A DNA stretch of 64,000 nucleotides, taken from contig MVRA01000187.1 of NCBI GenBank assembly GCA_002067315.1, forward strand, positions 577-64,576. The letters run 5' to 3'. Below are positions 2,351-63,739 of this stretch, piece by piece. Both the position numbers and the translations under genes were made by a program. The DNA is from Methanocella sp. PtaU1.Bin125 (GTDB lineage: Archaea > Halobacteriota > Methanocellia > Methanocellales > Methanocellaceae). The notes beneath the pieces were generated by a model that worked only from the letters and a program-made list of their open reading frames with translations, did no database searches and was not told the origin of the DNA. Positions within the stretch are counted from its first letter, which is position 1. Each line of letters begins with the position of its first letter.

Positions 2351-4354
2351 TTATCTGTTCAGCCAGCTGATCGGGAACTGGAAGGGTAGCGTAATGTAGC
2401 CCAGCTTGTTCAGCGCGATCACGCCGACTGTCACGACCAGAATGACGAGGACCGCGATGATGATGTAGTCGACGAGGTGGGACCGCTTCGCCACCGGCTG
2501 CTCAATGACTGGCTCCACGACCGGCTTCGGCTCCTCGGGGGCCGGGGGTTTGAGGCTCTTCAGCATCTGGTCGACGACCGCCTCGATCTGCGGCAGGCCG
2601 TTCTTGCCGATCATCAGGATCTTGTAGTACAGGTCCGACTTTTCTTCGTCGGAGACCTTCATCCGGAGCGCGATGTTGCGCAGGCAGGACTCGGCGATAC
2701 GGTAATCGGCGTATGCCCCGGTGTCGATCTTCGCCATCTCGGTGGCGAGGCGCAGCGCCTGCGCGGTGGCGTCGTCGTCGCCGGAAGCCCCGAGCCGCTC
2801 GATCAGCGTGGTGACCCTGGCCTGCACGATCTCGACGTCGGAGTGCAGCTTTGCGATCTCCTTCTGGCTCAGCCGCTTGCCCTCTTCCTTCGGCAGCGTC
2901 TCTTCGGGCAGGAAGCGCTCGATGGACAGGCACAGCCCGGCATAGTCGCTGAACCTGCCGGCGAAGCTGAAGTTCCGGTCGCTGTAAGCGCTTCGGAGCA
3001 CGTTGAGGATGTCCTTGGTCACGAGCATGATCTCTTTCTTATGCTCCGCCTTCTCCGCGTCCTTCTTCAGGTCGGCGAAGTCCTTCTCGATGTAGTTCAT
3101 GATCTCCGGCGACTTGGAGGTCATCAGCTTCAGGTATGAGCTAAAGAAGAGCCGGTATGCGCGGGCCGCCATGTTGTCCTGCTCGATGAGCGACAGGTCG
3201 AAGCATTTCACGGCGATCGCGGCGTTCCCGGTGAACTGCTCTTTCGGCATCGCGAGCGACCGGGCGATGTAAATCTTGCCCAGGCCCAGCAGCGTTTCAC
3301 TATTCAGAAGCATGTGCGGCTTCAGCTGCTCGCCGAGCGAGTCCAGGAATTGCCCGACGTTCTTGCTATCAGCGATCTTATAGTAAACCCGGGGCACGAG
3401 GTTCGCCAGGCTGATGGTAGTCCAGGCCCGGACGCTGTCGTCCTTCGTCGTCCCGTAGATCGAGTACAGCGGGGCAAACGAGGCTTTAGTGCCCGCCATG
3501 CCGAGCGCGAAAATGACCTCTTCTGCCGATTTCTGGCCCCTCGACTCCAGGGTCTTCAGCAGCGGCACCTCGGCGTCCTCGCCGATGTTGCCCAGCGTGT
3601 AAGCAGCAATCCACCGGATGTCCCGGTCGTTGTTCTCCAGCAGCTTCAGCAGCTCGGGGATCGCCGGCCGGCCGATCTTGATCAGCGCGTCGCTGATCCG
3701 CGACCGTATCTCGACGTTCGCCGGCGCGATGTGGGCCGCCAGGGGTGGGACCGCCCGCTCGTCGCCGATCCGGCCCAGCGTGTAGATCGCGTTGACCTGC
3801 ACCCGGGCGTCCGGGTCGTCCAGGCTTTTGACCAGCGGCTCGACGGTGATGTTGCCGATCTCGTAGAGCGCGTTGATCGCCTGCACGTCCAGGTCGTTCC
3901 ACGTGTAGAGCTGCCGGCTCCGGAACCGCTGGATGAGGGCCTCGATCGCCTTCACGTCGGCCTTCTGCCGGATCTCGTTGGCCGCGAACCGGACCATGGC
4001 CAGGTTGTCGCTGGAGATCAGCAGCTCGACGAGCTGCGGAGAGGCTTTGGCGTAGTCTATCTGGCGGTAGCCCCAGAGCGCGTAAGACTGGACCTCGGCG
4101 TCGGTGTCCGAGACGGCGTGGCGGATCAGCGGGATGACGGCCAGCGGGCTCTTCGTCTTGCCCAGCGCGATGGCGGCGTTCGTGCGTACCAGCCGGTCCG
4201 GATCGTTCAGCGCCTCGCTCAGAGCCTGCACGTATTCGTCCTTCGGGGCCTCCTGCACGGCCCGGATGGCGCCGATCCTGGTCAACAGGTCGGTGCTCTT
4301 GAGCGCTTCGTTCAATCTCTGCTGGTTCCAGCTCGCACTTGGATATTCCGCCAC
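2351..4354 (-). CDS. HEAT/PBS-lyase-repeat protein with C-terminal transmembrane segment
   Basis: 667-aa ORF. Multiple D.D..VR..A..ALG-type HEAT-like repeats in the N-terminal half. Hydrophobic helix (IIIAVLVILVVTVGVIAL) near the C-terminus. Confidence 0.75.
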   Translation of the reverse strand: MAEYPSASWNQQRLNEALKSTDLLTRIGAIRAVQEAPKDEYVQALSEALNDPDRLVRTNAAIALGKTKSPLAVIPLIRHAVSDTDAEVQSYALWGYRQIDYAKASPQLVELLISSDNLAMVRFAANEIRQKADVKAIEALIQRFRSRQLYTWNDLDVQAINALYEIGNITVEPLVKSLDDPDARVQVNAIYTLGRIGDERAVPPLAAHIAPANVEIRSRISDALIKIGRPAIPELLKLLENNDRDIRWIAAYTLGNIGEDAEVPLLKTLESRGQKSAEEVIFALGMAGTKASFAPLYSIYGTTKDDSVRAWTTISLANLVPRVYYKIADSKNVGQFLDSLGEQLKPHMLLNSETLLGLGKIYIARSLAMPKEQFTGNAAIAVKCFDLSLIEQDNMAARAYRLFFSSYLKLMTSKSPEIMNYIEKDFADLKKDAEKAEHKKEIMLVTKDILNVLRSAYSDRNFSFAGRFSDYAGLCLSIERFLPEETLPKEEGKRLSQKEIAKLHSDVEIVQARVTTLIERLGASGDDDATAQALRLATEMAKIDTGAYADYRIAESCLRNIALRMKVSDEEKSDLYYKILMIGKNGLPQIEAVVDQMLKSLKPPAPEEPKPVVEPVIEQPVAKRSHLVDYIIIAVLVILVVTVGVIALNKLGYITLPFQFPISWLNR

Positions 4355-4599
4355 TTCATCACCACACTATGAACGCAAAGGCACAGCCGGCACGTCGCTA
4401 TCGGCTGACAGCTATACCGCTTTGTATAGTTGCTTTTATAAGTATTAATATTTGTTCTCCCCGGTAAATGCAAAATAACCACCGATCGCTCGATACAGGG
4501 CAGTAAAAATCGATTCCGGCCCGTTTGCCCGGGGAACGGATCATCCCGGCATCGAAAGCGGGCGGAAAATCCGCGTGAGCCGGGGCCATTCGAACCCGG

Positions 4600-6738
4600 T
4601 CATTGATCGGCGTCTGCCGGACCGGCGGCGTTTAGCTTTTTCATGACCTCGTCCAGCGATCGCTTTGCGCTTTCCAGTTCCCGGCTCAGGTGGTCGACAC
4701 GTTTCTGCAGCTCGACCGCTTCTTCGAATAACCCGTCGTTCGCTTTATTAGCTTCGGGCTTCGCGGTCGCCTGCCTGACCGCGGTCTCAAACGTGCGGAA
4801 TGCGCGCTCTTCCCGGCCGTTTCCTGCCATGACAGCGTCCAGCGAGGCCTGTGTCGCCTGCGCGGTATGCGAAGCCTGCAGGGCCGGCGAAGCCTGTGAT
4901 GCCGGCCGATCAGCCTTTTTAATCCCTTCGGCGTCGACATATTGCCTGATCGCGGCGATGAACTCCCCGCCGAAGCGCTCCAGCTTCGTCCGGCCGACGC
5001 CGGGGACCTTGGCGAAGTCCTCGTCGGAGCACGGGTATGTCCTCGCCATCTCCTTAAGCGCGGTGTCGTGGAATACGACGTATGGCGGCCAGCCGTTAGC
5101 GTCGGCGATGCGCTTCCGGGCGTCCCTCAAGATCTGGAACAGCCGGGTGTCGTATTTACCATCGGCCTTCACCGTCACAGTGACCTGCTCTTCGGCTGGC
5201 TTTGTCAGGAGTACTTGCGCGGTATTATCGACGATCTCCATGCATTTCTCGTTCAGCACGACGACCGGGTACTTGTCGCCCGCGATGGAGAGATATCCCA
5301 GCCGGACCAGCTCCTTGATAAACGTGATCCATTGCGTCTTCGAGTACGGCTTGCCGGTGTTGTAGGCCGGGTTCCGGTCGTGGTGGTGCTCCAGTATCTT
5401 CCTGCTCGCCGAGCCGCAGATGACGTCGGCGATGTGGCTGACGCCGAACCTGCCCTGCAGGCTCGAGACGCAGGTGACGATCTTTTTAGCGATCTCGCTG
5501 CCGTCGATAGTGTCCCGCGGGTTCAGGCAGTTGTCGCAGCCGCCGCACCCGTTGCTCCGGGCAACGGCCTCGTCGTACGCCTCCCCGAAATACCTGAGCA
5601 GAAAAGAACGCCGGCAGAGGCGGGTCTCGCAGTAGTCCATCATGGCCCGCCACTTTTTCACCGCCACGCTGTTGAGCCGCTCGTCGTCGTACTCGTGTTC
5701 GATCAGGCTCTTGAGCTTCATGGCATCGGCGGCAGAATAGAACAGGATGCAGTCGCTGGGCTCGCCGTCTCTCCCGGCCCGGCCGGTCTCCTGGTAGTAG
5801 GACTCCAGGTTCTTGGGCATGTCATAGTGGATGACGTACCGGACGTCCGGCTTGTCGATGCCCATGCCGAAGGCGACGGTGGCGCAGATCACGTCCACGT
5901 TGTCCTTGACGAACTTCTCCTGGGTGGACGACCGGACAGGGTCCGACAGGTCGGCATGGTAAGGGAGCGCGCGAATGCCGGCTTTCTGCAATTTATCGGC
6001 GATCTCTTCCGTGGTCCGCTTCTGCAGGCAGTAGATGATGCCCGACATCCCGCGGTGGCTACAGACGTAGCCGATGATCTGTGGCAGCGCGCCCTTTTTG
6101 TCCATGATCCGGTAGGACAGGTTTTTGCGGTTGAAGCTGCCGATGTATCGCTTCGGGGACGCCAGCTTGAGCTGGTTGACAATGTCCTCTCGCACCTCCG
6201 GAATCGCCGACGCGGTCAGGGCGATCATGGGGATGCCCGGGAAACGGGCCTTCAGCGTCGACAGCTTCCGGTACTCCGGCCGGAACTGGTGGCCCCACAT
6301 CGAGATGCAATGGGCCTCGTCCACGGCGATCAGCCTGACATCGAGCTTGCCGAGGAACTGTAAAAACGTCTCCTGTGTGACCTTTTCCGGGGATATGTAC
6401 AGGACGCGGATGACGCCGGCCAGCAGGTCCCGCTCGATGGACCGGATCTCGTGGATGCTCATCGAGCTGTTCAGCGTCGCCGCCGGTATCCCGTTGGCCA
6501 CCAGGTCGTCCACCTGATCTTTCATCAGCGAGATGAGCGGCGAAACGACGATGGTGACGCCGCCCGAGAGGAGCGCGGGCAGCTGGTAGCACAGGGACTT
6601 GCCTCCTCCGGTGGCGATGATGGCCAGTACGTCGTGCCCGCCGGCGATGTCGGTGATGATCTCTTCCTGGAACGGCCGGAACGTCCTGTAGCCAAAATGT
6701 TGCTCTAACGTGTCGTACAATAGCTTCCTGTCGATCAT
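4600..6738 (-). CDS. recQ: ATP-dependent DNA helicase RecQ
   Basis: Walker A (TGGGKSLCYQLPA), DEAH box (DEAHCISMWGHQFRPEY), RecQ-Ct Zn-binding Cys cluster and an HRDC-like region (LFQILRDARKRIADANGWPPYVVFHDTAL). Confidence 0.9.
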   Translation of the reverse strand: MIDRKLLYDTLEQHFGYRTFRPFQEEIITDIAGGHDVLAIIATGGGKSLCYQLPALLSGGVTIVVSPLISLMKDQVDDLVANGIPAATLNSSMSIHEIRSIERDLLAGVIRVLYISPEKVTQETFLQFLGKLDVRLIAVDEAHCISMWGHQFRPEYRKLSTLKARFPGIPMIALTASAIPEVREDIVNQLKLASPKRYIGSFNRKNLSYRIMDKKGALPQIIGYVCSHRGMSGIIYCLQKRTTEEIADKLQKAGIRALPYHADLSDPVRSSTQEKFVKDNVDVICATVAFGMGIDKPDVRYVIHYDMPKNLESYYQETGRAGRDGEPSDCILFYSAADAMKLKSLIEHEYDDERLNSVAVKKWRAMMDYCETRLCRRSFLLRYFGEAYDEAVARSNGCGGCDNCLNPRDTIDGSEIAKKIVTCVSSLQGRFGVSHIADVICGSASRKILEHHHDRNPAYNTGKPYSKTQWITFIKELVRLGYLSIAGDKYPVVVLNEKCMEIVDNTAQVLLTKPAEEQVTVTVKADGKYDTRLFQILRDARKRIADANGWPPYVVFHDTALKEMARTYPCSDEDFAKVPGVGRTKLERFGGEFIAAIRQYVDAEGIKKADRPASQASPALQASHTAQATQASLDAVMAGNGREERAFRTFETAVRQATAKPEANKANDGLFEEAVELQKRVDHLSRELESAKRSLDEVMKKLNAAGPADADQ

Positions 6739-9125: not shown

Positions 9126-9165
9126 CTAATTATTTTTTTTAATCCAATGGATACTCTTTAATTTT

Positions 9166-9280
9166 CTTGGCGCTCCTGGCTACCTGGCGCTCTTGGCGGG
9201 CGTGACATGGGTCGCATTGACATGATAAGGGATGTATCGCTCTTGTTGTACCGGCTATGCGACTCCTGTCACGCTCAACG
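9166..9280. repeat. CCTTGGCGC-family palindromic intergenic repeat (right arm truncated)
   Basis: CTTGGCGCTCCTGGCTACCTGGCGCTCTTGGCGGGCGTGAC...GTCGCAT ... ATGCGACTCCTGTCACGCTC. Homologous to the elements at 11290, 14132 and 47336. Confidence 0.8.
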
Positions 9281-9950: not shown

Positions 9951-10040
9951 CGATACTGGATGTCCCCGCCGGGCTAAAACGGTTACCTGCGTAAACTGCG
10001 CATAATCGGCTCATCCCGCTCTGTAGTTACAAACGGTAAA

Positions 10041-10540
10041 TGTTCCGGTGTCTATTCAACAGGTTGCCATGGACAGCGCATGCGCGCCCGGGCGGACGGC
10101 CGCTATTCCACGAGACTCGCTTGATCAAGAACAGTTTTTCACATGCAGGCAATGAAATGGGCCTTGTTTCGGGAGCATAGCGACGGGTGCGACGAAACGC
10201 GACGGGTGCGACGTTTCTCGAAGAACGATTTACTGGTTATCGTTTAACAGACGTCGTGCCCGTCGCGTTTCGTCGCGTCGTCGCGGGTATACCGTCCGTC
10301 GAATTGCCTGTACGGGGCTGCGACGAATGCTCCGCTGTGGCCAGGCGCAGTACTGATTCCCGCAACGACCGCGACGAAACGCTACGAACGCGACGTTTCT
10401 CGAAGAATGATATGACAATCCGTTATCCTTTAACAGTCGTCGCGCCCGTCGCGATTCGTCGCGGGAATGCAGTCCTGCGCTAAGCCTCCGCAAAGGCTAT
10501 TCCGGAAGCCTGAACAGGACTTACAAGGAACACCTGAACA
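10041..10540. mobile_element. MITE-like non-autonomous element, copy 1 (TIRs plus two long internal hairpins)
   Basis: Ends TGTTCCGGTGTC ... GAACACCTGAACA are inverted repeats. The whole ~500 bp aligns with 40625..41109. Contains two ~25-bp GC-rich stems, e.g. 10189-10213 pairs with 10252-10276. Confidence 0.75.
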
Positions 10541-11198: not shown

Positions 11199-11289
11199 TC
11201 AATTACATAAATGATAACCGGAAATAAAAATGAATCACACGATTTAATTTTTATGCGTACTTCGCTGTCTGGTGGTTATAGTTTTCCGT

Positions 11290-11432
11290 CTTGGCGCTCC
11301 TGGCTACCTGGCGCCCTTGGCGCGCGTGACAGGGGTCGCATAGCCTATACAACAATCCTGACGCAAGCCTTGTATAGGAATTCGACTACTGTCACGCTCG
11401 CCAAGGGCGCCAGGTAGCCAGGAGCGCCAAGG
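11290..11432. repeat. CCTTGGCGC-family palindromic intergenic repeat (complete, face-to-face arms)
   Basis: Left arm CTTGGCGCTCCTGGCTACCTGGCGCCCTTGGCGCGCGTGAC (11290-11330). Right arm GTCACGCTCGCCAAGGGCGCCAGGTAGCCAGGAGCGCCAAGG (11391-11432). The arms are near-perfect reverse complements. Confidence 0.85.
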
Positions 11433-11448
11433 ATTTTTTTTTAAATTT

Positions 11449-12638: not shown

Positions 12639-14030
12639 GTGTTCCTAAAATTCGTCGACAGGGTTTCCGAACTCGACATGCTTAATAGAGCCTATGCAGA
12701 AGACGGCTTCCATTTCATCGTGATATATGGCCGCCGGCGGGTGGGAAAGACTGAGCTCTTAAAACAATTCATCAAGGACAAAGACGCGATATATTTTCTT
12801 TGCGATAAGAGCGGTACTGCCAACAACATGGACCGGTTCAAAAGAATGGTGGCAGAGCATCTGGACGAGCCTGCCATTGAAACAGACGAGCCGGAAAAAA
12901 TTTTCTCATATATCGCTCGCAAGGCCAACCCCGGGACTGTACTAATCTTTGACGAGTTTGCATACTTGATGGAAAAAGACGATGCAATTGCCTCGATATT
13001 CCAGAGGGTGATTGACGAAGTATTAAAAAACACCAATATGATGCTGGTAGTCTGTGGCTCGAGCATGAGCATGATGCTCGACGGGGTGTTAGCCCATAAA
13101 AGCCCGCTATACGGCAGAAAGACGAATCACGCTTTAATTAATCCCATGCGGCTAACCGATATCAACGAGCTTCTCCCATCGAACACGCTGGAAGAGAATA
13201 TCCGGGCATATTCTGTTCTCGGAGGTATCCCGTATTATTTGAACAAATTCCGGGACGGCGTCGATACTATCGAAAACGTCCGGACGCAAATCCTGGATAA
13301 GAATGGGGCATTATACGAGGAGACGGATTTTCTCCTCAGGGAAGAGCTGCGAGAGCCCGACATTTACAAGACGATAGTGACGGCAGTGGCTTCCGGGACA
13401 ACGCGGGTCACCGAAATCGCGAATAAGTGCCGGATGAAACCACAGGATCTGGACCGTTATCTCAAAGTCCTGAGAAGGCTGGGCATCATAAAGCGAGAGT
13501 GCCCGATCACAGACAGGAAAAGCAAAAAAACAATTTATGTGATAGACGACAATTTTTTTGCATTCTGGTTCAGGTATTGCGAGCCCCGAAAGGCAGACCT
13601 CGAGATAGGAGACCCTACCGTCGTTATGCAGAGGCTGGAAAAAGATTTTCACGCGTTCGTCGGAAGGGGATTCGAAAAGATCGCGAGAGAGGAAATGCTC
13701 AGAAAACTATACCCCGGGGCGTATACAGATATCGGCCGATGGTGGGGGCATTACAGGGACGGTGACCAGAGGAAAGAGATCGAAATCGATATTTTAGGCC
13801 TTAACCCGGAAAAAATCGTTGCAGGATTCTTCGAGTGCAAATGGCAGGACCTTAGCGAAGCCGAAGCGAGGAAGATCCTCGATGACCTCAGGGAAAAGGC
13901 GAGATATGTCGAATGGCATAACGGGGATCGTAAAGAAACGTTTGGCATATTTGCTAGAAGCATCACAAAAAAAGAGAGTCTTCGCAGAGACGGTTTTCTC
14001 GCTTTCGACCTGAGGGATTTTCAAACATAG
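12639..14030 (+). CDS. Archaeal AAA-type ATPase (Arch_ATPase + DUF234-like C-terminal domain)
   Basis: 463-aa ORF. Walker A (GRRRVGKT), Walker B (LIFDEF). Overall architecture typical of the archaeal ATPase/DUF234 family. Confidence 0.8.
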   Translation: MFLKFVDRVSELDMLNRAYAEDGFHFIVIYGRRRVGKTELLKQFIKDKDAIYFLCDKSGTANNMDRFKRMVAEHLDEPAIETDEPEKIFSYIARKANPGTVLIFDEFAYLMEKDDAIASIFQRVIDEVLKNTNMMLVVCGSSMSMMLDGVLAHKSPLYGRKTNHALINPMRLTDINELLPSNTLEENIRAYSVLGGIPYYLNKFRDGVDTIENVRTQILDKNGALYEETDFLLREELREPDIYKTIVTAVASGTTRVTEIANKCRMKPQDLDRYLKVLRRLGIIKRECPITDRKSKKTIYVIDDNFFAFWFRYCEPRKADLEIGDPTVVMQRLEKDFHAFVGRGFEKIAREEMLRKLYPGAYTDIGRWWGHYRDGDQRKEIEIDILGLNPEKIVAGFFECKWQDLSEAEARKILDDLREKARYVEWHNGDRKETFGIFARSITKKESLRRDGFLAFDLRDFQT

Positions 14031-14034
14031 GAAA

Positions 14035-14091
14035 ATGATAAGCGATCGCGCGCATGATAAGCGATCGCGCGCATGATAATCGATCGCGCGC
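14035..14091. repeat. 19-bp tandem repeat x3 (ATGATAAGCGATCGCGCGC)
   Basis: Units at 14035-14053, 14054-14072 and 14073-14091 (one substitution). Each contains the palindrome GCGATCGC. Confidence 0.9.
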
Positions 14092-14131: not shown

Positions 14132-14243
14132 GCGCGCGACAGGAGTCGCATTGCCTTTACAATAATTCTGCAGTAAACCTTGTCTGGTCAATTCGACTAC
14201 TGTCACGCTCGCTAGGGGCGCCGTGTAGCCAGGAGCGCCAAGG
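14132..14243. repeat. CCTTGGCGC-family palindromic intergenic repeat (left arm truncated)
   Basis: GCGCGCGACAGGAGTCGCATTGCC ... GTCACGCTCGCTAGGGGCGCCGTGTAGCCAGGAGCGCCAAGG. The right arm matches 11391-11432. Confidence 0.8.
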
Positions 14244-14403
14244 ATTTTTAAAATAAAATACTAATGAATTGCTATAAATTGGCCGGATAAAAAATTAAAA
14301 TATAGGCAACATCCGCATCGTTCTTTTTGTCTTCGGACCCTTCGTGTCTTTGTGGATCAGTCATAACTTTTATGTAGTAGTAATGCCTTTGTACAGGAAT
14401 GTT

Positions 14404-14504
14404 GGGCCCGTAGCTTAGCCAGGTCGGAACTGCTCAAACAAAAAGCAGCGACAAGCGCTCGGCTGATAACCGAGAGGCCCTGCGTTCAAATCGCAGCGGG
14501 CCCA
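14404..14504 (+). tRNA. tRNA-Ile (anticodon GAU) with a ~25-nt insertion (intron) in the D-arm
   Basis: Acceptor GGGCCCG/CGGGCCC. Anticodon arm CTCGG-CTGATAA-CCGAG. T arm CTGCG-TTCAAAT-CGCAG. Discriminator A. The D stem GCTT...AAGC is interrupted by a self-complementary insert (GTCG GAA CTGCT CAAACAAAA AGCAG CGAC). Total length 101 nt. Confidence 0.8.
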
Positions 14505-14514
14505 TCATACTTCT
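14501..14514. repeat. Left copy of 14-bp direct repeat CCCATCATACTTCT (att-like, overlaps the tRNA-Ile 3' end)
   Basis: An identical 14-mer recurs at 18416-18429. The AT-rich island lies between the two copies. Confidence 0.7.
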
Positions 14515-14581
14515 GGGGATATAGTTAACATCCCTGATTTTGCACTTTTCTCACAAGCTTGAAAACAAGTAATTTCAAATA

Positions 14582-15043
14582 TTATAATCCAAGCAGTTGT
14601 TTCTTTTTTGCTTCGAACTCTTCTTGTGTTACAATGCCAGCATCTTTTAATTCCGCTAATTTTTTAAGTTCGTCAAGAGCACTTATTTTATTATTGCTAC
14701 TTTGGTCATTAGAAGTCATTAATTCTTCAACTTTTGCTTTTAATGCAATGAAGTTAGCTGTATCTTGTACATTAAACGTAACTGTATTTTCATCTTTATT
14801 TGCTGCAAAAACATTACCTTTTGATTCTTGACTACCCATAATAACGAATTGTATGTATCCGACGGTTAATCCTGGTTGTTTTACTTGTATCCCAGTGATA
14901 CTTTTAATTTGGATCTCTTTCTCTCCTTTCGTGAATCCTTGAGTCATTTTTGCGATAATACCTTTTCGCATTATTTTAATTTTATTTTGATATAATTCGA
15001 TTTGTCCATTATATCCATTGACTGTCATTAAAACATCGCTCAT
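14582..15043 (-). CDS. PH-like (bPH/YokE-like) domain protein with C-terminal SHOCT domain
   Basis: 153-aa ORF in AT-rich DNA. The N-terminal G.I.L....I.I.RKG ... I.I..I.G.Q...PG...GYIQF pattern is typical of bacterial PH-like domains. The C-terminal ALDELKKLAELKDAGIVTQEEFEAKKKQLL is a textbook SHOCT motif. Confidence 0.75.
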   Translation of the reverse strand: MSDVLMTVNGYNGQIELYQNKIKIMRKGIIAKMTQGFTKGEKEIQIKSITGIQVKQPGLTVGYIQFVIMGSQESKGNVFAANKDENTVTFNVQDTANFIALKAKVEELMTSNDQSSNNKISALDELKKLAELKDAGIVTQEEFEAKKKQLLGL

Positions 15044-15192
15044 AGCCCAATCCCTAACGTTATACTATAAATCGAACTAAAAATAAAATTTTCTAAAAAA
15101 CTAACTTGATAGTTGTATCGTAGTCATTACCGATATGATTATATTATCAAGCGTTTATTCAAATAATATTTACTAAATATATAGGTGGTTTA

Positions 15193-16194
15193 ATGGATAA
15201 AGATAGTTTAGTAATTCCAATATACTTAGATACCAATATTTTAATGGATTTGCTGGCCTCAATAGAAGACGGTTTTAGCATGGTAGAAACTGTAAAGAAA
15301 CAATCTGCCAATAGTAGTAAAACAGAATTTTCTGGTAATGGAAATATTGGTACTGGATTAGCATTATTTGATTTATTAGATATAATTAAAATTGATCTAA
15401 AAGGAACTGCATCAAAGGCAGCACATCAAAAGACTGAAGAAGAACGGCAGGCTGAACGATATCATACGGCTGGATCACTTCTTAATAAATTACGAAGATT
15501 AATTTCTGATGAAAAAATAATTTTACAAATTAATAATGAAGAAACGTGGAACGCTGCCAACGTATCTGATTTTATTGAGACAAGTGGTCGATTTGTCCCT
15601 AATCCATTATATGATTCATTAATTACTATGAAAAAAATTATAGAATTTATTACGACTTCCACCGATATGGAATCAAAACAAAAAGAGCTCACTCCAATAT
15701 ATGATGATTTAATTAAGCGTTCAAAGACTAATACCCCTTCAAAAAAATTAAGTCAGGAGGAAGTAGAAAAGCTAAAGTCTATTACTCAAGAACTTGAGAC
15801 GATAAAAAATTTAAAATTCATTGATACATTATTGAATGGTTTTATTACAGATTTAGAGCGCTCCGGAAAACAAACGTATGTAGTAGAGCTTGATGGCCTT
15901 ACAGGGTTTAAAGGAATAATAACATTACATAACCAGTTTAACAAAGATAGTGTAGGTTTTGAACTCCCATATGGGAATTTTAAACTATTGGGTAAGGTTG
16001 TTAGAAAAGTTAACGAAGGTGAATCATATAACCTTCTGAGAGGCTCTGCGCTATCTGGTATTGATGATAGTATTTTAGGTCAATTGCTAGGGGGTTTTTC
16101 AAAAATAAGGGAAGGTGGTATTAATATTCCAGAATTAACCACCAAAGTTGATTCTCCTGCAATCCAGATTATACCAATAGCCATATTTGTTTGA
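15193..16194 (+). CDS. Hypothetical protein, 333 aa, no family recognised (island cargo)
   Basis: Long uninterrupted ORF in ~30% GC DNA, where random ORFs of this length are very unlikely. Divergently oriented to the SHOCT gene across a 149-bp AT-rich spacer. Confidence 0.7.
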   Translation: MDKDSLVIPIYLDTNILMDLLASIEDGFSMVETVKKQSANSSKTEFSGNGNIGTGLALFDLLDIIKIDLKGTASKAAHQKTEEERQAERYHTAGSLLNKLRRLISDEKIILQINNEETWNAANVSDFIETSGRFVPNPLYDSLITMKKIIEFITTSTDMESKQKELTPIYDDLIKRSKTNTPSKKLSQEEVEKLKSITQELETIKNLKFIDTLLNGFITDLERSGKQTYVVELDGLTGFKGIITLHNQFNKDSVGFELPYGNFKLLGKVVRKVNEGESYNLLRGSALSGIDDSILGQLLGGFSKIREGGINIPELTTKVDSPAIQIIPIAIFV

Positions 16195-16239
16195 AATTTA
16201 TTTTTACATACCTCTATTAATTTAAAATAATAAGGTAAA

Positions 16240-17187
16240 TTATTCAAAATAGCTATCCAACGTTCTCATACTTGAATCGGTAGTTACAGAGATATCAAAT
16301 CCTGTCATTTTTTCGATTATTGATTTTAGGTGATCGATACCTTTGGCATATCCTGCGTTTTCTTTCCTAGTTGTATATATAAGGTCATAATAGAAACCAG
16401 ACCCTGAAGATATTTTAATTACCTTCAGCGTTTTCACATTTTTGTACTGTTTTAATTTATTAATGTAGATTTCTTTGTAGCAATCAAGCCTTTTCGTTTG
16501 AGGTACTGACAAACACTTTTTATAACTCTCGTCACTAAAAAATTGAGGTAGATACTTTTCCCACGAGGTTTTTCGATTAATTCCAAACGAGTTAAAGTTG
16601 AAAAGCATGTCAAAATGCGGGTATCGCATAGATAGCAGCTTGTCCATCGTGCTCCAATGTATTTCTGTTGAAAATGGGTCAACAAATAATAAAAAGTGAG
16701 CTTCATCAAGGTCTCTTAGCTCGTTAATTAAACTATCTATACTCTCATTACAGTCTGAAGAATATACTTTACACGTTGAGGTCAATTTACCTTTTTCTTT
16801 TAATAATTGTAATCGCTTTGTAAGTAGCTCATGGCCATCGTTCTCAAAGAAGTAACAACGGTCAAACGGTGTTCTATCAAATGTAGACATTAAAACTGGA
16901 GACCCCAGTAAGTGCTGTTTTTTTCCACCATAGTCCTCGAATGTGTCTAAACCAGTTCCAGAGAACAAGTCTACATAACACATATTTTTATATCCGTTTT
17001 TCTTAATTATTGGGGCATATGTAAAATAGGCGTAACTAAACAAACAAGTTAATTTTAAGAAACTCCAAGGCTGTGAAGTCGTTCCTATTGAATCTAATTT
17101 AATAATGTCTATTAACTCTTCATTCTGCAGAAACTTTTGATGTTTTTCAATGGTTTCCCTTTCACTCATCTTCTTACCCAATACCAC
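16240..17187 (-). CDS. tcmP: TcmP-like protein (three-Cys-motif partner protein; methyltransferase-fold-like)
   Basis: 315-aa ORF. Block pattern W..LK......Y....Y..I... YVDLFSGTG ... GSPVL ... FFEND ... D.N..I ... LLFVDPF...I.W.T...LL ... D.L.NF...GI.R matches my recollection of the TcmP family (TIGR04474). Lies 13 nt downstream of a CxxxCxxC radical SAM gene. Alternative ATG start at 17169. Confidence 0.65.
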   Translation of the reverse strand: MVLGKKMSERETIEKHQKFLQNEELIDIIKLDSIGTTSQPWSFLKLTCLFSYAYFTYAPIIKKNGYKNMCYVDLFSGTGLDTFEDYGGKKQHLLGSPVLMSTFDRTPFDRCYFFENDGHELLTKRLQLLKEKGKLTSTCKVYSSDCNESIDSLINELRDLDEAHFLLFVDPFSTEIHWSTMDKLLSMRYPHFDMLFNFNSFGINRKTSWEKYLPQFFSDESYKKCLSVPQTKRLDCYKEIYINKLKQYKNVKTLKVIKISSGSGFYYDLIYTTRKENAGYAKGIDHLKSIIEKMTGFDISVTTDSSMRTLDSYFE

Positions 17188-17200
17188 GCCCCCTTAACAG

Positions 17201-18214
17201 TTAAAAGGTGCAATTACATTCAATTTTTTTATAATTCAATTTTAATCTACTCCAAACACCAAGTGTTTCTTTACACAGTGCTATTTTAGAAAATTTATGA
17301 TTATCATTTAGATAACTAATCAAGTAATTATACATGTTATAACGGGTCTCGTCATCGATTTTACGCCCCCAATTCGAACTCACTGAAAGATAGTCAACCC
17401 AGGACTTATCTTTCGAATTATTAATAGTTGATTGGAGCCCCCTTAATGAACCAATTGTTATTCGGTCAGGTACGAAACTTGAAAAGATATCATCTACAAG
17501 CCTAGAATAATGCTCTTTCCACTTCTCGATTGGAACCATAGGGTCGATACGTACCCTTGTCTGGTATCCGGCATCATAGACCTTTTTCGCAGCTTTGATA
17601 CGGTCTTTAATAGTAGGAGCCTTATGCTCCCATTTTTTTGATACAATATCAGCATTTAGGCTAAAGCCCATTACTATTCTGTCCGGTCTTTTAAGATCAA
17701 CGATGTTTTTAACAAGGGTCGATTTTGTTAGGAATAATACTCTATACTTGCCTTGAGGATCATAATCGTCGAGCACTCTTACTATAAATCTTGAGAACGG
17801 TTTGTTGCTACCTTCGCTTAGTAATGCATCAGATAATTCCCCTGCATTCAAAAGCTCATGCTCAGAAGAATTTTCAGCAATAAATCGCTTGATATGGGCT
17901 TCTATAGTTTTATAATCTTTAAATTTTGGGCTTCCATTCTTCCACTCTGGATGAAATCTATATGTGCCTTGCAGGAAACACCATGCACAATCAAATTTGC
18001 ATCCATTAGCCCATTTTAATTCTATAAAGTGCGGACAAACAACATCAGATTCATTTTTTGGTACTGGCGTTTTATTAAATAACGCGATGATGGTACCATC
18101 TAATATTTTATTAATCCTCATCTCAGTTGAACCATTGAGTGTAGGATAAGTTTTATTTGACAAAAGATTCTCCCCGCAATTTTCGATTAAACCGAATTCG
18201 GTTAATGTTGACAT
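17201..18214 (-). CDS. Radical SAM protein, spore-photoproduct-lyase/SplB-like (CxxxCxxC)
   Basis: 337-aa ORF. Motif NGCKFDCAWCFLQG (C-x3-C-x2-C). Size and layout resemble COG1533-type 'DNA repair photolyase' radical SAM enzymes. First gene of a two-gene operon with the TcmP-like gene. Confidence 0.7.
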   Translation of the reverse strand: MSTLTEFGLIENCGENLLSNKTYPTLNGSTEMRINKILDGTIIALFNKTPVPKNESDVVCPHFIELKWANGCKFDCAWCFLQGTYRFHPEWKNGSPKFKDYKTIEAHIKRFIAENSSEHELLNAGELSDALLSEGSNKPFSRFIVRVLDDYDPQGKYRVLFLTKSTLVKNIVDLKRPDRIVMGFSLNADIVSKKWEHKAPTIKDRIKAAKKVYDAGYQTRVRIDPMVPIEKWKEHYSRLVDDIFSSFVPDRITIGSLRGLQSTINNSKDKSWVDYLSVSSNWGRKIDDETRYNMYNYLISYLNDNHKFSKIALCKETLGVWSRLKLNYKKIECNCTF

Positions 18215-18415
18215 TATCTCTCTTGTCCTTTATTAATCCTTTCAATTAATTGCGATTAAGTATTAACTATTAATTAATACTTATAAATTTGTTCGTGTAT
18301 AAATTATTGTAGAATAAGCATACTGAAAATAATAAAATGTTTAAATGGTTGATATTATGAGCCATAGGTTACGTATCTACTGCAAAAAAAATTGGATGGA
18401 TTCTTCTCATATGAC

Positions 18416-18429
18416 CCCATCATACTTCT
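18416..18429. repeat. Right copy of 14-bp direct repeat CCCATCATACTTCT
   Basis: Identical to 14501-14514. The composition change back towards higher GC begins shortly after it. Confidence 0.7.
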
Positions 18430-18468: not shown

Positions 18469-19530
18469 GGGACTGTTGCAAAATTAGGTAGCAAGTATAT
18501 TGGCATCTGAGCCGTCATCGTTTTTATGACTAGTAAAAACGGATGTGTTGGCTGGCAGATGCCGGTTTATTGTTTTGATTGTCAATGTAAAATACTTTCT
18601 GACCCTGTCATCGAGGTGCTGGAGTCGGTGGACTGGCGCCAGTTCTCGTTCCTAGAACGTTACAAGGGCAGGGGCAGGCGTCGTGTTCATAACCGGATCG
18701 GTTTGTTGCGGGCTCTTTTATACATGAAGCTCGCGGGGATTCCCAGCGTCCACGAGCTATTACGTGTGTTGGCGCGTGATCCGTATAAAATGAAGATTCT
18801 TGGCCTTGAACGTCTGCCCAGTGATAGCGTGTTCAGCAGATTCAAACGAGAACTGGGAAAGAGCATAGACCGGCTAGTATCATTGATAGCTGGCAAGCTC
18901 CATGAACTGGATCCGGACATGTTTGTCAAGCTGGGTGCCGACAGTACGAAGCTCGAGGCGTGCAAGAAAGATAGACAGTCCGGTTGGGGCTTTGACCATA
19001 TCGACCGGCGTTTCTATAAGGGATACAAGGTCCACTTGTTGTATGATACAAGGCTGCTGGTGCCCGTTTGTTTCGCGGTGACCAGTGCTAGTGTGCATGA
19101 TAACCTGGTGCTTCGCAGACTGGTAGGAAAGCTAGGAGCGGGGATATTGAAAGCAGCCGGACTCTTCCTTGATCGTGCTTACGATAGTCGGGCGAACGTC
19201 GAGGATTTCGCCCGTGCCGGAGTAACAGTGATCAACAGGAAGAATAAGCGAAATGCGAAGAATGTTAAGGGAAAATATCGTTTACAGGACTATTGCCAGG
19301 TCCACGGGAACAGGCTGAACCATTTATATAAAACCAGGAACGATTGCGAAGTGACAAACAGCCTTTTAAAAGAACGTCTCGGCCTTCAAAAGAAAAAGAC
19401 GAAAGGCATTATCAGAAACCGGGTGAAAGCCGGATTGAGCATACTGGCCAGACAAATCCAAGTACTACACCAGCTTTTACAAGAAGCCGACCCTCGGACG
19501 ACCATCATGAACTAATTATGCAACAGCCCC
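18469..19530 (+). mobile_element. Insertion sequence, IS4/IS5-type (DDE transposase), with 7-bp flanking direct repeat
   Basis: Imperfect terminal inverted repeats GGGACTGTTGCAAAATTAG (left) and CTAATTATGCAACAGCCCC (right). TATAAAA occurs directly outside both ends (18462-18468 and 19531-19537). Single transposase ORF inside. Confidence 0.85.
18526..19515 (+). CDS. IS4/IS5-family DDE transposase
   Basis: 329-aa ORF. DDE_Tnp_1-like blocks (GADSTKLEA, YKGYKVHLLYD, LDRAYDS) and the Y-x2-R-x3-E-x6-K signature (YKTRNDCEVTNSLLK). Confidence 0.85.
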   Translation: MTSKNGCVGWQMPVYCFDCQCKILSDPVIEVLESVDWRQFSFLERYKGRGRRRVHNRIGLLRALLYMKLAGIPSVHELLRVLARDPYKMKILGLERLPSDSVFSRFKRELGKSIDRLVSLIAGKLHELDPDMFVKLGADSTKLEACKKDRQSGWGFDHIDRRFYKGYKVHLLYDTRLLVPVCFAVTSASVHDNLVLRRLVGKLGAGILKAAGLFLDRAYDSRANVEDFARAGVTVINRKNKRNAKNVKGKYRLQDYCQVHGNRLNHLYKTRNDCEVTNSLLKERLGLQKKKTKGIIRNRVKAGLSILARQIQVLHQLLQEADPRTTIMN

Positions 19531-20997: not shown

Positions 20998-21120
20998 ACT
21001 ATCACGAGACGCCAGCAGTCTATCGGAAATTATTACTAAATATGGGCTTCTTGAGGTAAATATTATCCTCCGGGTGATTATTGGCCGACCTTATAACTTA
21101 TATGACAATCGCAGCCACAC

Positions 21121-21230
21121 GATCGGCAGGAACGGTTAATGCATTGTGCCGATCTGCAGGAACGGTTAATGCATTGTGCCGATCTGCAGGAACGGTTAAT
21201 ACAAGTATCGATTGGCAGGAAAGCTTAATG
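21121..21230. repeat. 30-bp tandem repeat (GATCKGCAGGAACGGTTAATGCATTGTGCC) x2.7 plus a degenerate fourth core
   Basis: Units at 21121-21150, 21151-21180 and 21181-~21202. Related core GATTGGCAGGAAAGCTTAATG at ~21210-21230. Confidence 0.85.
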
Positions 21231-21428
21231 AGTGGTGTCATCATTGAGCTTATTATGTCCCGGCGCAAGGAGCCTCGCGAAAAGAAACTCCGGCGAGTGA
21301 AGAGCAAGCGTTGCTACCTTTGTTCCAGGCCCATCCCCCCGGGCGAGGAGCTCTGCGTCGGGCCGGACCTGTGGATTTGCCCTAACTGTATCGTCAGAAT
21401 GGTGAAATGGGGAGTGGCGCATGTGTAG
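21228..21428 (+). CDS. Possible small basic zinc-finger protein
   Basis: ATG at 21228 (or 21258) gives ...RRKEPREKKLRRVKSKRCYLCSRPIPPGEELCVGPDLWICPNCIV..., with CxxC...CxxC. The part of the track ORF upstream of 21228 merely translates the tandem repeat. Confidence 0.35.
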   Translation: MSGVIIELIMSRRKEPREKKLRRVKSKRCYLCSRPIPPGEELCVGPDLWICPNCIVRMVKWGVAHV

Positions 21429-21628: not shown

Positions 21629-21850
21629 GGCGAGCCTGGCGGTCCCTGCCGAGCCTGGCGCGCTGTAACGCTGCGCATAGCCTTGACAATGCCCAATTTT
21701 CATACGTCTTCACATGAAAACAATACGTTTTCATAACCGATCCTGGCGGAATCTACCCTGGCGCTCTTATCCCTCCCGGCGCTCCTGGCGAGCGTAACAG
21801 CAGTCGCATAGCCTGAACAAGGCCAATTTTCATCTGTCTTCTCATGAAAC
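21629..21850. repeat. Two tandem degenerate half-units of the CCTTGGCGC family ending in TTTTCAT...CATGAAA motifs
   Basis: ...CCTGGCGCGCTGTAACGCTGCGCATAGCCTTGACAATGCCCAATTTTCATACGTCTTCACATGAAAA and ...CCTGGCGAGCGTAACAGCAGTCGCATAGCCTGAACAAGGCCAATTTTCATCTGTCTTCTCATGAAA. Both resemble the arm at 47415-47510. Confidence 0.65.
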
Positions 21851-40571: not shown

Positions 40572-40624
40572 CCGCGCCGCCCGGCGGGGGCGCGATCCCG
40601 GGAGCGCGACTTTTTATTTGTAAT

Positions 40625-41109
40625 TGTTCAGGTGTCTCTTCAACAGGTGGCCATGGCCAGCGCACGCGTATGCGAGCGGACGGCCGCCAGTCCATGAGAC
40701 TTGCTTAATGAATAGTTTTTCACGTGCAGGCAATGAAGATGGGCCCTGTTTCGGGGCCTGTCATATTGATCCTCGCGACGAACGCGACGTTTCTCGAAGA
40801 ACGATTAACTGGTTATCCTTTAACAGTCGTCGCGCCCGTCGAATTGCCTGCACGAGACTGCCGACGAATGCTCTGCTATGGCCAAGCGCAGTACGTATTC
40901 TCGCGACGGGCGCGACGAAACGCGACGGGCGCGACGTTTCTCGAAGAATGATATGACAATCTGTTATCCTTTAAATGTCGTCGCGCCCGTCGCGATTCGT
41001 CGTCGGACATCAGCAGATGTCCGCGTCGTCGCGAGAATGCAGTCCTGCGCTAAGCCTCCGCAAAGGCTATTCCGGAAGCCTGAACAGGACTTTCAAGGAC
41101 ACCTGAACA
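40625..41109. mobile_element. MITE-like non-autonomous element, copy 2
   Basis: TIRs TGTTCAGGTGTC ... GACACCTGAACA. Aligns throughout with 10041..10540 and includes the same two hairpin modules. Confidence 0.75.
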
Positions 41110-47125: not shown

Positions 47126-47335
47126 CGGTGAGCCTCATTGTCGGGCGAGGATAAAAGTGTTTTCAAAGCGAGGACCATGCCGGTACATGGGACTACGAAC
47201 GAACGAAATAGTAAAAGGCCGCAGAGAGCGCAGAGAGCCGCAAAGACCGCAGTTTCTTATTAGTTTTACTTATACGATATCTAAAAGAAAAACTGCATTC
47301 CATGAAAATATCCTTGTATAGGCAATGTGACTCCT

Positions 47336-47456
47336 GTCACGCTCGCCAAGGGCGCCAGGTAGCCAAGGGCGCCAAGCCTTTATAGATATTGTGATATGGC
47401 CTTAACTAATCAGTCCTTGGCGCTCTTGGCTCCCTGGCGCCCTTGGCGAGCGTGAC
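47336..47456. repeat. CCTTGGCGC-family repeat, two arms in back-to-back orientation
   Basis: GTCACGCTCGCCAAGGGCGCCAGGTAGCCAAGGGCGCCAAG (47336-47376), a ~38-bp spacer, then CCTTGGCGCTCTTGGCTCCCTGGCGCCCTTGGCGAGCGTGAC (47415-47456). Wider imperfect dyad spans about 47215-47545. Confidence 0.8.
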
Positions 47457-47631
47457 CGGGGCGCATTGCATTGATAAGGCCTGATTTTCATAAGCCTATA
47501 CATGAAAATACCCGTTTTTCATCCATCGAGTTCTCTGCGGCCTTTAACCGCGCCCTGTGTACCTGTACACACAGCCCGGAAACGCTCCTGTGCCATAAGC
47601 GCTGCGTGGTATGTGCTATTGTAGTGTTGCA

Positions 47632-54528: not shown

Positions 54529-54620
54529 TCCCGCCCCCCGAATTCGAATCGGGGACCTGTCGGTTTCCGCAGTCGTAAGGTCTACAGCCGACCGCTCTGA
54601 CCAGGCTGAGCTAGGGCGGG
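54529..54620 (-). tRNA. tRNA-Tyr (anticodon GUA) with canonical-position ~17-nt intron
   Basis: Reverse complement: CCCGCCC-TA-GCTCAGCCTGGTCAGAGC-G-GTCGG-CTGTAG[intron]A-CCGAC-AGGTC-CCCGATTCGAATTCGGG-GGGCGGG-A. Confidence 0.85.
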
Positions 54621-63369: not shown

Positions 63370-63371
63370 AA

Positions 63372-63688
63372 GTCGCCAAGCGTCCAAGATGAGCCGCCAA
63401 GACGCCACTGTAGAAAATAAGAGGCGCCAAGGCGCCAAGTCTTTTTTTATGTTTAAGACGCCAAGCGTCCAAGAGGAGGGGCCAAGACGCCACTGTAGGA
63501 AAAAAGAGGCGCCAAGGCGCCAAGTGTTTTTTAGTAAAAAGATACCAGATAGCTAAGTTGCCGTATAAGGGACACATGCGTAGCATCTTGGAGTCTTAGA
63601 TACTTGAACATAAAAATTACACTTGGCGCCTTGGTGTCTCTTATTTTCTATAGTGGCGTCTTGGTACCTCTTCTTGGACGCTTGGCCC
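63372..63688. repeat. GCCAAG-rich repeat cluster: two direct ~70-bp copies plus one inverted copy
   Basis: Copy 1 at 63372-63440 and copy 2 at 63456-63526 (…GCCAAGCGTCCAAGA…GCCAAGACGCCACTGTAG…AGAGGCGCCAAGGCGCCAAGT). Inverted copy at 63620-63688 (CACTTGGCGCCTTGG…CTATAGTGGCGTCTTGG…CTTGGACGCTTGGC). Confidence 0.85.
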
Positions 63689-63739
63689 CTTGCCGCGGTC
63701 GAAAGGTTTTATAGGTCGGGCATGCATGTTATCGCAGCT

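Follow-up and report, generated by a model that had tools for sequence, protein, structure and literature searches.

A TcmP gene paired with a spore photoproduct lyase-family radical SAM gene in a tRNA-associated cassette of Methanocella: a candidate nucleic acid-modifying module

The stretch of 64,000 nucleotides of Methanocella sp. PtaU1.Bin125 analysed here (from contig MVRA01000187.1, called the window below) carries a compact operon of two genes, one encoding a radical S-adenosylmethionine (SAM) enzyme of the spore photoproduct lyase (SPL) family and the other a protein of the TcmP family. Both are located on the minus strand, the upstream radical SAM gene at 17201..18214 (337 aa, ATG start) and the TcmP gene at 16240..17187 (315 aa, GTG start), as given in the list of open reading frames (ORFs). 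Both proteins are 100% identical to those recorded for this metagenome-assembled genome. The original prediction, made from the sequence alone, had described two co-directional ORFs with a 13-nt gap, and this is the arrangement found: the spacer at 17188..17200 on the minus strand reads ctgttAAGGGGGc, and the operon junction is TAA-ctgttAAGGGGGc-GTG. A Shine-Dalgarno-like AAGGGGG lies immediately 5' of the TcmP GTG, as expected for the second gene of an operon. The three motifs singled out by the prediction are likewise in place: GCKFDCAWCF in the upstream protein supplies C72, C76 and C79 in a CX3CX2C arrangement, and in the downstream protein YVDLFSGTG occupies residues 71-79 and FVDPF residues 168-172.

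The downstream protein had been assigned to TcmP, the three-Cys-motif partner family, and its score against the NCBIfam model TIGR04474 bears this out, reaching 90.5 bits versus a curated cutoff of 53 over residues 40-278 and profile positions 1-251 of 263. Among the models of the defence-system database PADLOC it matches PDC-M41A (1.2e-16) and PDC-M30A (2.3e-6). A Pfam scan gave no match for this protein, and a profile search of the PDB returned nothing below an E-value of 0.1. The family is large, with 4,499 clusters at 50% identity retrieved at E<=1e-3 and 2,035 with E<=1e-10. Residue conservation was taken from 23 diverse TcmPs (14-55% identity), in which K45, G77, L122 and D170 are invariant and Y71, D73, F75, G79, P171 and Y267 nearly so (conserved in at least 90%); the window protein carries all of the family-invariant residues tested. 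Its recognisable motifs are thus YVDLFSGTG (71-79), the analogue of methyltransferase motif I, a GSP loop at 95-97, D170-P171 as the analogue of motif IV, and K45. The window subfamily has an N-terminal extension of approximately 40 aa and lacks the C-terminal winged helix-turn-helix (wHTH) domain of the long bacterial and phage forms.

The AlphaFold2 model of TcmP is confident (pLDDT 90.1), and the nine best Foldseek matches to it are all chains of E. coli RlmJ, the 23S rRNA m6A2030 methyltransferase (4BLV, 6QE5), with E-values from 4.6e-6 to 7.5e-5 and TM-scores of 0.41-0.54. Weaker matches include TYW4, Trm5a, MnmM and fibrillarin, as well as SafC and COMT. When the motifs of the two proteins are compared by eye they are colinear, in the order Y-x-D-x-(H/F)-x-G-x-G, GSP loop and (I/V)-D-P, and a lysine in the N-terminal helix, K18 in RlmJ, has its counterpart in K45 of TcmP. 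Alignment of the TcmP profile with E. coli RlmJ in hhalign gave a probability of 0.3 and covered the GSP loop only; since the sequence profile searches were null as well, only the comparison of folds connects TcmP to RlmJ. The RlmJ-like layout proposed originally finds support in the fold comparison, though with TM-scores of no more than 0.54, and none in the sequence profiles. The proposal of a (D/N)PP(Y/F)-type motif IV has also been kept in part: the D-P dipeptide is present, followed by F and S in the window protein (DPFS, where RlmJ has DPPY), and across TcmPs just D-P is retained with a variable residue next to it. This conservation is what would be expected of a catalytically active protein, predicted to bind SAM and to use an Asp-Pro catalytic loop, and not of a canonical DPPY enzyme. 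RlmJ differs further from TcmP in acting alone, on rRNA, as a vertically inherited housekeeping enzyme.

The upstream protein was expected to be a radical SAM enzyme of the SPL/COG1533 type, and such a placement is supported both by profile and by fold. It scores 67.9 bits on the Pfam SPL model PF20903, for which the gathering score is 27. On the general radical SAM model PF04055 it remains below threshold (26.1 bits, gathering score 29.5), and its placement in the superfamily follows from the result for PF20903, well above threshold, together with a fold matching the radical SAM barrels. SPL chains of the PDB are found with an E-value of 1e-7 by phmmer and 5e-15 with a family profile, the homology being detected only over residues 59-243 or so. 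Foldseek with the AlphaFold2 model (pLDDT 84.7) places the SPL structures 4fhf and 4fhc at the top of the PDB matches (E from 8e-12 to approximately 1e-11, TM-score about 0.6), and lipoyl synthase, the runner-up family, is weaker by about five orders of magnitude. A search of the BFVD collection with the same model yielded just generic phage radical SAM proteins, all of them weaker than SPL. Thus, both of the structure predictions that had been suggested for the single proteins were obtained with confidence, with SPL and RlmJ as the respective top PDB matches.

In 33 homologs of the radical SAM protein the CX3CX2C motif (C72-KFD-C76-AW-C79) and the pair G125-E126 within GELSD are invariant. 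Four further cysteines, C60, C314, C333 and C335, are invariant in the SPL-type subfamily, the last two lying in the C-terminal KCNC. Even the TcmP-linked member that diverges most has retained them, as have the fusion proteins, and they are missing from the other types of radical SAM partner described below, and they may constitute a second metal site, an auxiliary Fe-S cluster or Zn. The canonical CX3CX2C, the partial TIM barrel and the status of closest relative in sequence and fold link the protein to SPL (SplB; 4FHC), whereas its KCNC terminus, its four additional cysteines, its TcmP partner and several catalytic positions set it apart. In a phmmer alignment the H-donor Cys140 of the G. 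thermodenitrificans SPL aligns with the family-invariant E126, and the relay tyrosines Tyr96 and Tyr98 with W78 and F80. Scores on the SPL equivalog models are far below their cutoffs (75.6 versus 400 for TIGR04070 and 47.9 versus 437.55 for TIGR03886). A true SPL function was considered and is ruled out by these scores together with the absence of the catalytic Cys and Tyr; to judge from the sequence, the protein belongs to the SPL family and has the canonical cluster motif, yet it is no SPL proper.

These observations bear on a repair function for the pair, in which the SPL-like enzyme would reverse a specific lesion and TcmP would serve as an accessory or lesion-recognition subunit. Such a role would suit an enzyme whose closest characterised relative is SPL, and LexA-like proteins (3), SRAP and RecG were found among 150 proteins encoded near TcmP at other loci, one of which, in Methanoperedens, is a chromosomal housekeeping location. 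Nevertheless, we regard it as improbable, given the replacement of Cys140, Tyr96 and Tyr98, the SPL equivalog score, the patchy and mobile phyletic pattern (plasmids, prophages and a low-GC island), and the fact that SPL works without a methyltransferase-like partner.

To examine the partnership more widely, TcmP loci were gathered from metagenomes, GTDB genomes, plasmids and phages, and a partner was defined as an ORF of at least 180 aa with CX3CX2C or CX6CX2-3C located no more than 400 nt from TcmP. A three-Cys partner stands beside TcmP in 37 of the 41 assessable non-redundant loci, while the motif occurs in 5 of 448 background ORFs located more than 1.5 kb away from TcmP. The conserved adjacency to a three-Cys radical SAM-type gene, by which the original prediction had defined the family, is thereby confirmed, with a variable relative orientation of the two genes: the partner may be upstream, downstream, divergent or convergent. 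Three classes of partners can be distinguished. The SPL type (C-x-F/Y-D/N/S-C-A/D-W/Y-C, 294-374 aa as called) is found in the window and at 13 other loci, mostly in Methanocellales, Methanobacterium, Methanoperedens and other archaea. The second class, DUF5131 (the Gp37/Gp68 family), comprises proteins of approximately 250 aa with C-x-K-I/V-S-x-G-C-x-N/H-C (CX6CX2C), encoded in Nitrosopumilaceae, many bacteria, plasmids and Gordonia phages. The third was found in small-genome (DPANN) archaea, is 280-295 aa long and carries CLNHVEGCSHGC. At RadicalSAM.org DUF5131 (Megacluster-5-2) is placed beside SPL (5-3) (PMC9477430); a PDB search with a DUF5131 protein found no solved relative.

The partners are also encountered as single polypeptides. 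Intact DUF5131-like-TcmP fusion proteins of 578-629 aa are represented by P0227, P0242 and P0275, and TcmP-(wHTH)-SPL-type fusion genes, with the reverse gene order, by L051:357-2460, L052, L053:515-2409 and L054. TcmP and its three-Cys partner are therefore, as far as can be read from their sequences, obligately linked and sometimes fused enzymes with intact cofactor-binding signatures. Three side observations concern these proteins. In the DUF5131-like N-terminal domains of P0227, P0242 and P0275 a canonical CX3CX2C (e.g., GCKHLCKYCW) replaces the usual CX6CX2C, and these domains appear to bridge DUF5131 and the classical radical SAM enzymes. Both independent TcmP-(wHTH)-SPL-type fusions have a frameshift in their TcmP part, close to the region of motif IV, and each of the two recurs in two separate assemblies; this could reflect inactivation under selection (of a toxic enzyme), phase variation or programmed frameshifting. 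The Rhodococcus plasmid pUSK13_1 (L012) carries two divergent TcmP paralogs of 447 and 361 aa, at 3409-4752 (minus strand) and 4983-6068 (plus strand), which adjoin one DUF5131 gene and a zeta-toxin gene.

The gene family itself is not new, and the window offers a clean example of a widespread system. PADLOC carries TcmP with DUF5131 as the untested defence candidates PDC-M41/PDC-M30. The window pair resembles these in the family of its A component (TIGR04474, 90.5 bits; PDC-M41A, 1.2e-16), in consisting of two genes with TcmP beside a three-Cys radical SAM-type enzyme, and in a mobile, defence-island-type context. It differs in the partner, a 337-aa CX3CX2C protein of the SPL family versus a DUF5131 protein of approximately 250 aa with CX6CX2C: DUF5131 partners score 1e-100 or better on the PADLOC B model, and no PADLOC model, the B component included, matches the window radical SAM protein. 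DUF5131 is the canonical, database-modelled partner of TcmP, and the SPL-type partner of the window is a distinct variant, so that the pairing can be considered a variant of the known but uncharacterised TcmP/three-Cys kind. TcmP was described in the original prediction as having no experimentally defined function, and this agrees with the searchable full-text literature, in which the name appears just in annotation tables; examples are an entry beside Hna in S. meliloti (PMC12445080) and another for phiLM21-like prophages (PMC12429752).

The pair resides in a low-GC cassette at 14515..18415 which contains four genes and no integrase, with a GC content of approximately 0.27-0.38, while composition profiles give approximately 0.55-0.63 for the host genome. 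At its left end lies an intron-containing tRNA-Ile(GAU) gene (14404..14504, plus strand), recognised by Rfam (RF00005, 60.3 bits) and missed by ARAGORN, with the anticodon loop CUGAUAA and an insertion of approximately 29 nt in the D-loop. A 14-nt att-like direct repeat, CCCATCATACTTCT, shares 4 nt with the 3' end of the tRNA gene (14501..14514, plus strand) and recurs as an exact copy at 18416..18429 (plus strand); two matches to it were observed and none was expected (100 shuffles). Both copies sit at sharp GC steps, from approximately 0.47 to approximately 0.30 and back, the GC content climbing from 0.28 to 0.49 at the right repeat. Since the repeat at the 3' end of the tRNA recurs, and both copies coincide with GC steps, the pair is cargo of a 3.9-kb tRNA-integrated cassette, for which tRNA-Ile is the integration target. 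A tRNA-linked island had been postulated for this region beforehand, and the tRNA gene, the repeats and the GC steps substantiate it. The remaining cargo consists of a gene for a DUF4429 (PH-like) and SHOCT protein (14582..15043, minus strand, 153 aa; assigned by Pfam, with phrog_2700 and phrog_888) and a DUF6414 gene convergent with TcmP (15193..16194, plus strand, 333 aa; PF19952, 108.9 bits). Neither recurs near TcmP at the other loci surveyed and neither is matched by PADLOC, and the two may be a separate two-gene cargo module.

Homologs elsewhere are found in a comparable setting. The gene of the closest radical SAM relative (66% identity) is located between a tyrosine integrase gene and a RepB-primase/AAA_25 replication gene, one fusion variant adjoins genes for a large serine recombinase and for a HinfI-like protein, and TcmP homologs are present on 104 plasmids. 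In Gordonia temperate phages the TcmP gene immediately follows that of the immunity repressor, the DUF5131 gene is convergent and an integrase is encoded nearby; in actinophages the slot beside the immunity repressor often carries defence genes expressed by the prophage. Among the 150 neighbour proteins scanned at 40 loci the commonest families are ResIII helicases (7), HNH (3) and the LexA-like proteins (3) mentioned above, with type IIG restriction-modification, PIN and ATPase_2-DUF234 proteins also recurring. Other neighbours of TcmP include BREX components (PglZ, BrxL), MmeI-type IIG enzymes, TIR, Schlafen/AlbA, HNH, NucS and SNase. No third gene (nuclease, regulator or integrase) is conserved among these 150 proteins, and no metabolic pathway recurs near the pair at the loci surveyed. 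The plasmids, phages, integrases and recombinases, together with the BREX and MmeI-type neighbours, agree with the mobile, restriction-modification-like context described in the original prediction, and the neighbourhood survey that it had proposed thus turned up neighbours of the defence and mobile type. Consistent embedding of the pair in a metabolic pathway, which that prediction had named as an argument against a conflict-related role, is not what the loci show. Its functional proposal, a base modification that would serve defence, self-marking or anti-restriction, fits all of the context evidence considered here.

The reading we favour, and hold tentatively at somewhat less than even chances, is that of a self-contained, horizontally mobile two-enzyme module whose members jointly target a base of a nucleic acid (DNA in the most probable case) in the course of genetic conflict. 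TcmP would bind SAM through an RlmJ-type Rossmann fold and present K45 and D170-P171 in the way known from amino-methyltransferases with a flipped-out base as substrate. In the radical SAM partner the [4Fe-4S] cluster held by CX3CX2C would cleave SAM to a 5'-deoxyadenosyl radical, and this radical would abstract hydrogen from the same base or nucleotide that TcmP handles. The outcome would be a modification beyond the reach of ordinary methyltransferases and polar chemistry, or the further processing of a TcmP product, with the four-Cys site relaying electrons or donating an atom. What the module would offer to the integrative elements, plasmids and prophages that carry it is a mark or lesion useful in genetic conflict, the candidate roles being self-marking, anti-restriction and interference with incoming phage DNA. 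The parts of this scheme that we infer are DNA as the substrate, which of the two reactions comes first, the presence of a second metal site and the biological function.

SPL, the nearest characterised relative of the partner, is a DNA enzyme, and the wHTH domains of some TcmPs are a further pointer to DNA. In addition, gp53 of phage M6, an SPL-like radical SAM isomerase, participates in thymidine hypermodification (PMC8989533) and is thus a known case of such an enzyme adding a modification to DNA bases, as opposed to repairing one, where genetic conflict is at work. It shows that enzymes of this kind can write DNA modifications. M6 gp53 acts with a kinase, an aGPT-Pplase and a pyridoxal phosphate-dependent decarboxylase on 5-hydroxymethyldeoxyuridine in phage DNA, no TcmP being involved (PMC8989533); its cluster motif lies in the context CTVGCAFC, and it is likened to the window protein by description alone. 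A narrower version, in which the pair together equips the DNA of cells, here archaeal ones, with a hypermodified base that depends on radical chemistry and has not been described before, is possible but doubtful; a methyl group placed by TcmP could then be activated by the radical SAM enzyme with the help of a second Fe-S cluster. The logic has an analogue in the wyosine/wybutosine pathway, where Trm5 methylates a base and TYW1, which is a radical SAM enzyme and has an auxiliary cluster, then abstracts hydrogen from the methyl group on the way to a larger modification. Weak fold matches of TcmP to TYW4 and Trm5a accord with this parallel, which is no more than an analogy; the wyosine enzymes belong to other families and to a housekeeping pathway acting on tRNA.

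Several points weigh against joint DNA base modification in genetic conflict. No conserved nuclease or effector stands beside the pair, so a restriction-like mechanism of defence is not evident. The kinship with RlmJ is structural only and RlmJ is an rRNA enzyme, which makes RNA a possible substrate, and since D-P is followed by a variable residue instead of completing (D/N)PP(Y/F), an exocyclic amine need not be the methyl acceptor. In Methanoperedens, one exception to the island pattern, the pair lies among housekeeping genes and adjoins translation genes. A scan of IMG/VR with TcmP patterns gave no confirmed relative, and no published experimental characterisation of TcmP, DUF5131 or their pairing was found in the searchable literature.

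The alternative that survives best places the module on RNA: by modifying rRNA or tRNA it would confer resistance to a toxin directed at the ribosome or tRNA, to an antibiotic or to an anticodon nuclease, following the logic of RlmJ, Cfr/RlmN or TYW1 with Trm5. The best fold match of TcmP is, after all, a 23S rRNA m6A methyltransferase, with tRNA enzymes among the weaker matches; many of the radical SAM enzymes that act on nucleic acids work on RNA, the rRNA methylases Cfr and Erm are themselves mobile, and the Methanoperedens pair is found next to translation genes. We consider it rather unlikely all the same, as the only significant characterised relative of the radical SAM partner is the DNA enzyme SPL, some TcmPs possess wHTH domains, and the neighbours are mostly DNA-directed (restriction-modification, BREX, HNH, ResIII).

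Defence by damage or by a small molecule is unlikely too. Here, upon infection, the radical SAM enzyme would directly damage strands or bases of phage DNA, or the pair would produce, in the manner of viperin, a modified nucleotide poisoning replication, and TcmP would be a sensor, a targeting subunit or a second tailoring enzyme. Radical SAM enzymes are known in defence, as in Ophion (10.1101/2025.09.30.679545). Prokaryotic viperins are another such case. TcmP and DUF5131 are listed among the PADLOC candidates, the pair is found in defence-island neighbourhoods, and the Gordonia prophage gene occupies a slot beside the repressor that is expressed in lysogeny. The enzyme, however, belongs to the SPL branch, whose substrate is polymeric DNA, and is not viperin-like; host toxicity would be expected from constitutive radical damage, the 150 neighbour proteins include no conserved regulator or sensor, and no published test of any member was found.

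A substrate other than nucleic acid (a protein, peptide or metabolite, e.g., in a step of cofactor tailoring or one resembling the maturation of ribosomally synthesised and post-translationally modified peptides) is very improbable, for although pairs of radical SAM enzymes and methyltransferases are common in natural-product tailoring and TcmP has weaker fold matches to the small-molecule O-methyltransferases SafC and COMT, the best fold matches of both proteins are nucleic-acid enzymes, the surveyed loci show no conserved genes for precursor peptides, transporters or biosynthesis near the pair, and no metabolic pathway consistently embeds the pair.

TcmP is a large family that has borne its name for years and figures in PADLOC just as a candidate. 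Because the operon of the window is compact and its canonical radical SAM partner has a DNA-acting nearest relative, a sharper testable hypothesis can be formulated, that of radical chemistry on DNA coupled to an enzyme with a methyltransferase fold. If it is true, the partner would be the second radical SAM enzyme, after phage M6 gp53, that writes rather than repairs DNA, and the first in cellular mobile elements and in archaea. Were the pair to install a hypermodified base as outlined above, this epigenetic or immune chemistry, new in kind, would be common, via the DUF5131 variants, to thousands of bacterial and archaeal plasmids, prophages and islands. A new DNA-modifying tool is a possible practical yield.

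Some further features of the window should be mentioned. To the right of the cassette the GC content stays intermediate, 0.40-0.52, up to approximately position 21000. An IS5/IS1182-like DDE transposase gene (18526-19515, plus strand; PF01609, DUF772) begins about 100 nt beyond the right direct repeat. Immediately upstream of tRNA-Ile lies an archaeal ATPase_2 and DUF234 gene (12639-14030, plus strand), which corresponds to the PADLOC candidate PDC-S27 (3.6e-53). A homolog of it is also located 3.4 kb from the radical SAM/TcmP pair at locus L009; the family is abundant in archaea, and the co-occurrence could therefore be a coincidence.

The window also contains GC-rich palindromic intergenic repeats resembling miniature inverted-repeat transposable elements, at 9157-9230, 11289-11439, 14178-14251, 21757-21820, 47312-47483 and 63370-63691. 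Their arms are approximately 50-75 nt long (CTTGGCGCTCCTGGC...GTGACAGG...), and they flank the ATPase gene and are scattered through the window, never occurring inside the low-GC cassette. Two short tandem arrays were found, one at 14035-14091, close behind the ATPase gene, in which a 19-nt unit, ATGATAAGCGATCGCGCGC, occurs three times, and another at 21120-21238 with four copies of a 30-nt unit, CGATCGGCAGGAACGGTTAATGCATTGTGC. A segment of approximately 500 nt that looks non-coding is duplicated 30.6 kb apart, at 10036-10529 and 40620-41099, with 82-97% identity between the copies. Finally, next to tRNA-Asp, ARAGORN reported a 'tRNA-???' of 92-93 nt (54529-54620, minus strand) with a 4-base anticodon, gtag; it scores 49.9 bits in Rfam and is probably another intron-containing tRNA gene.

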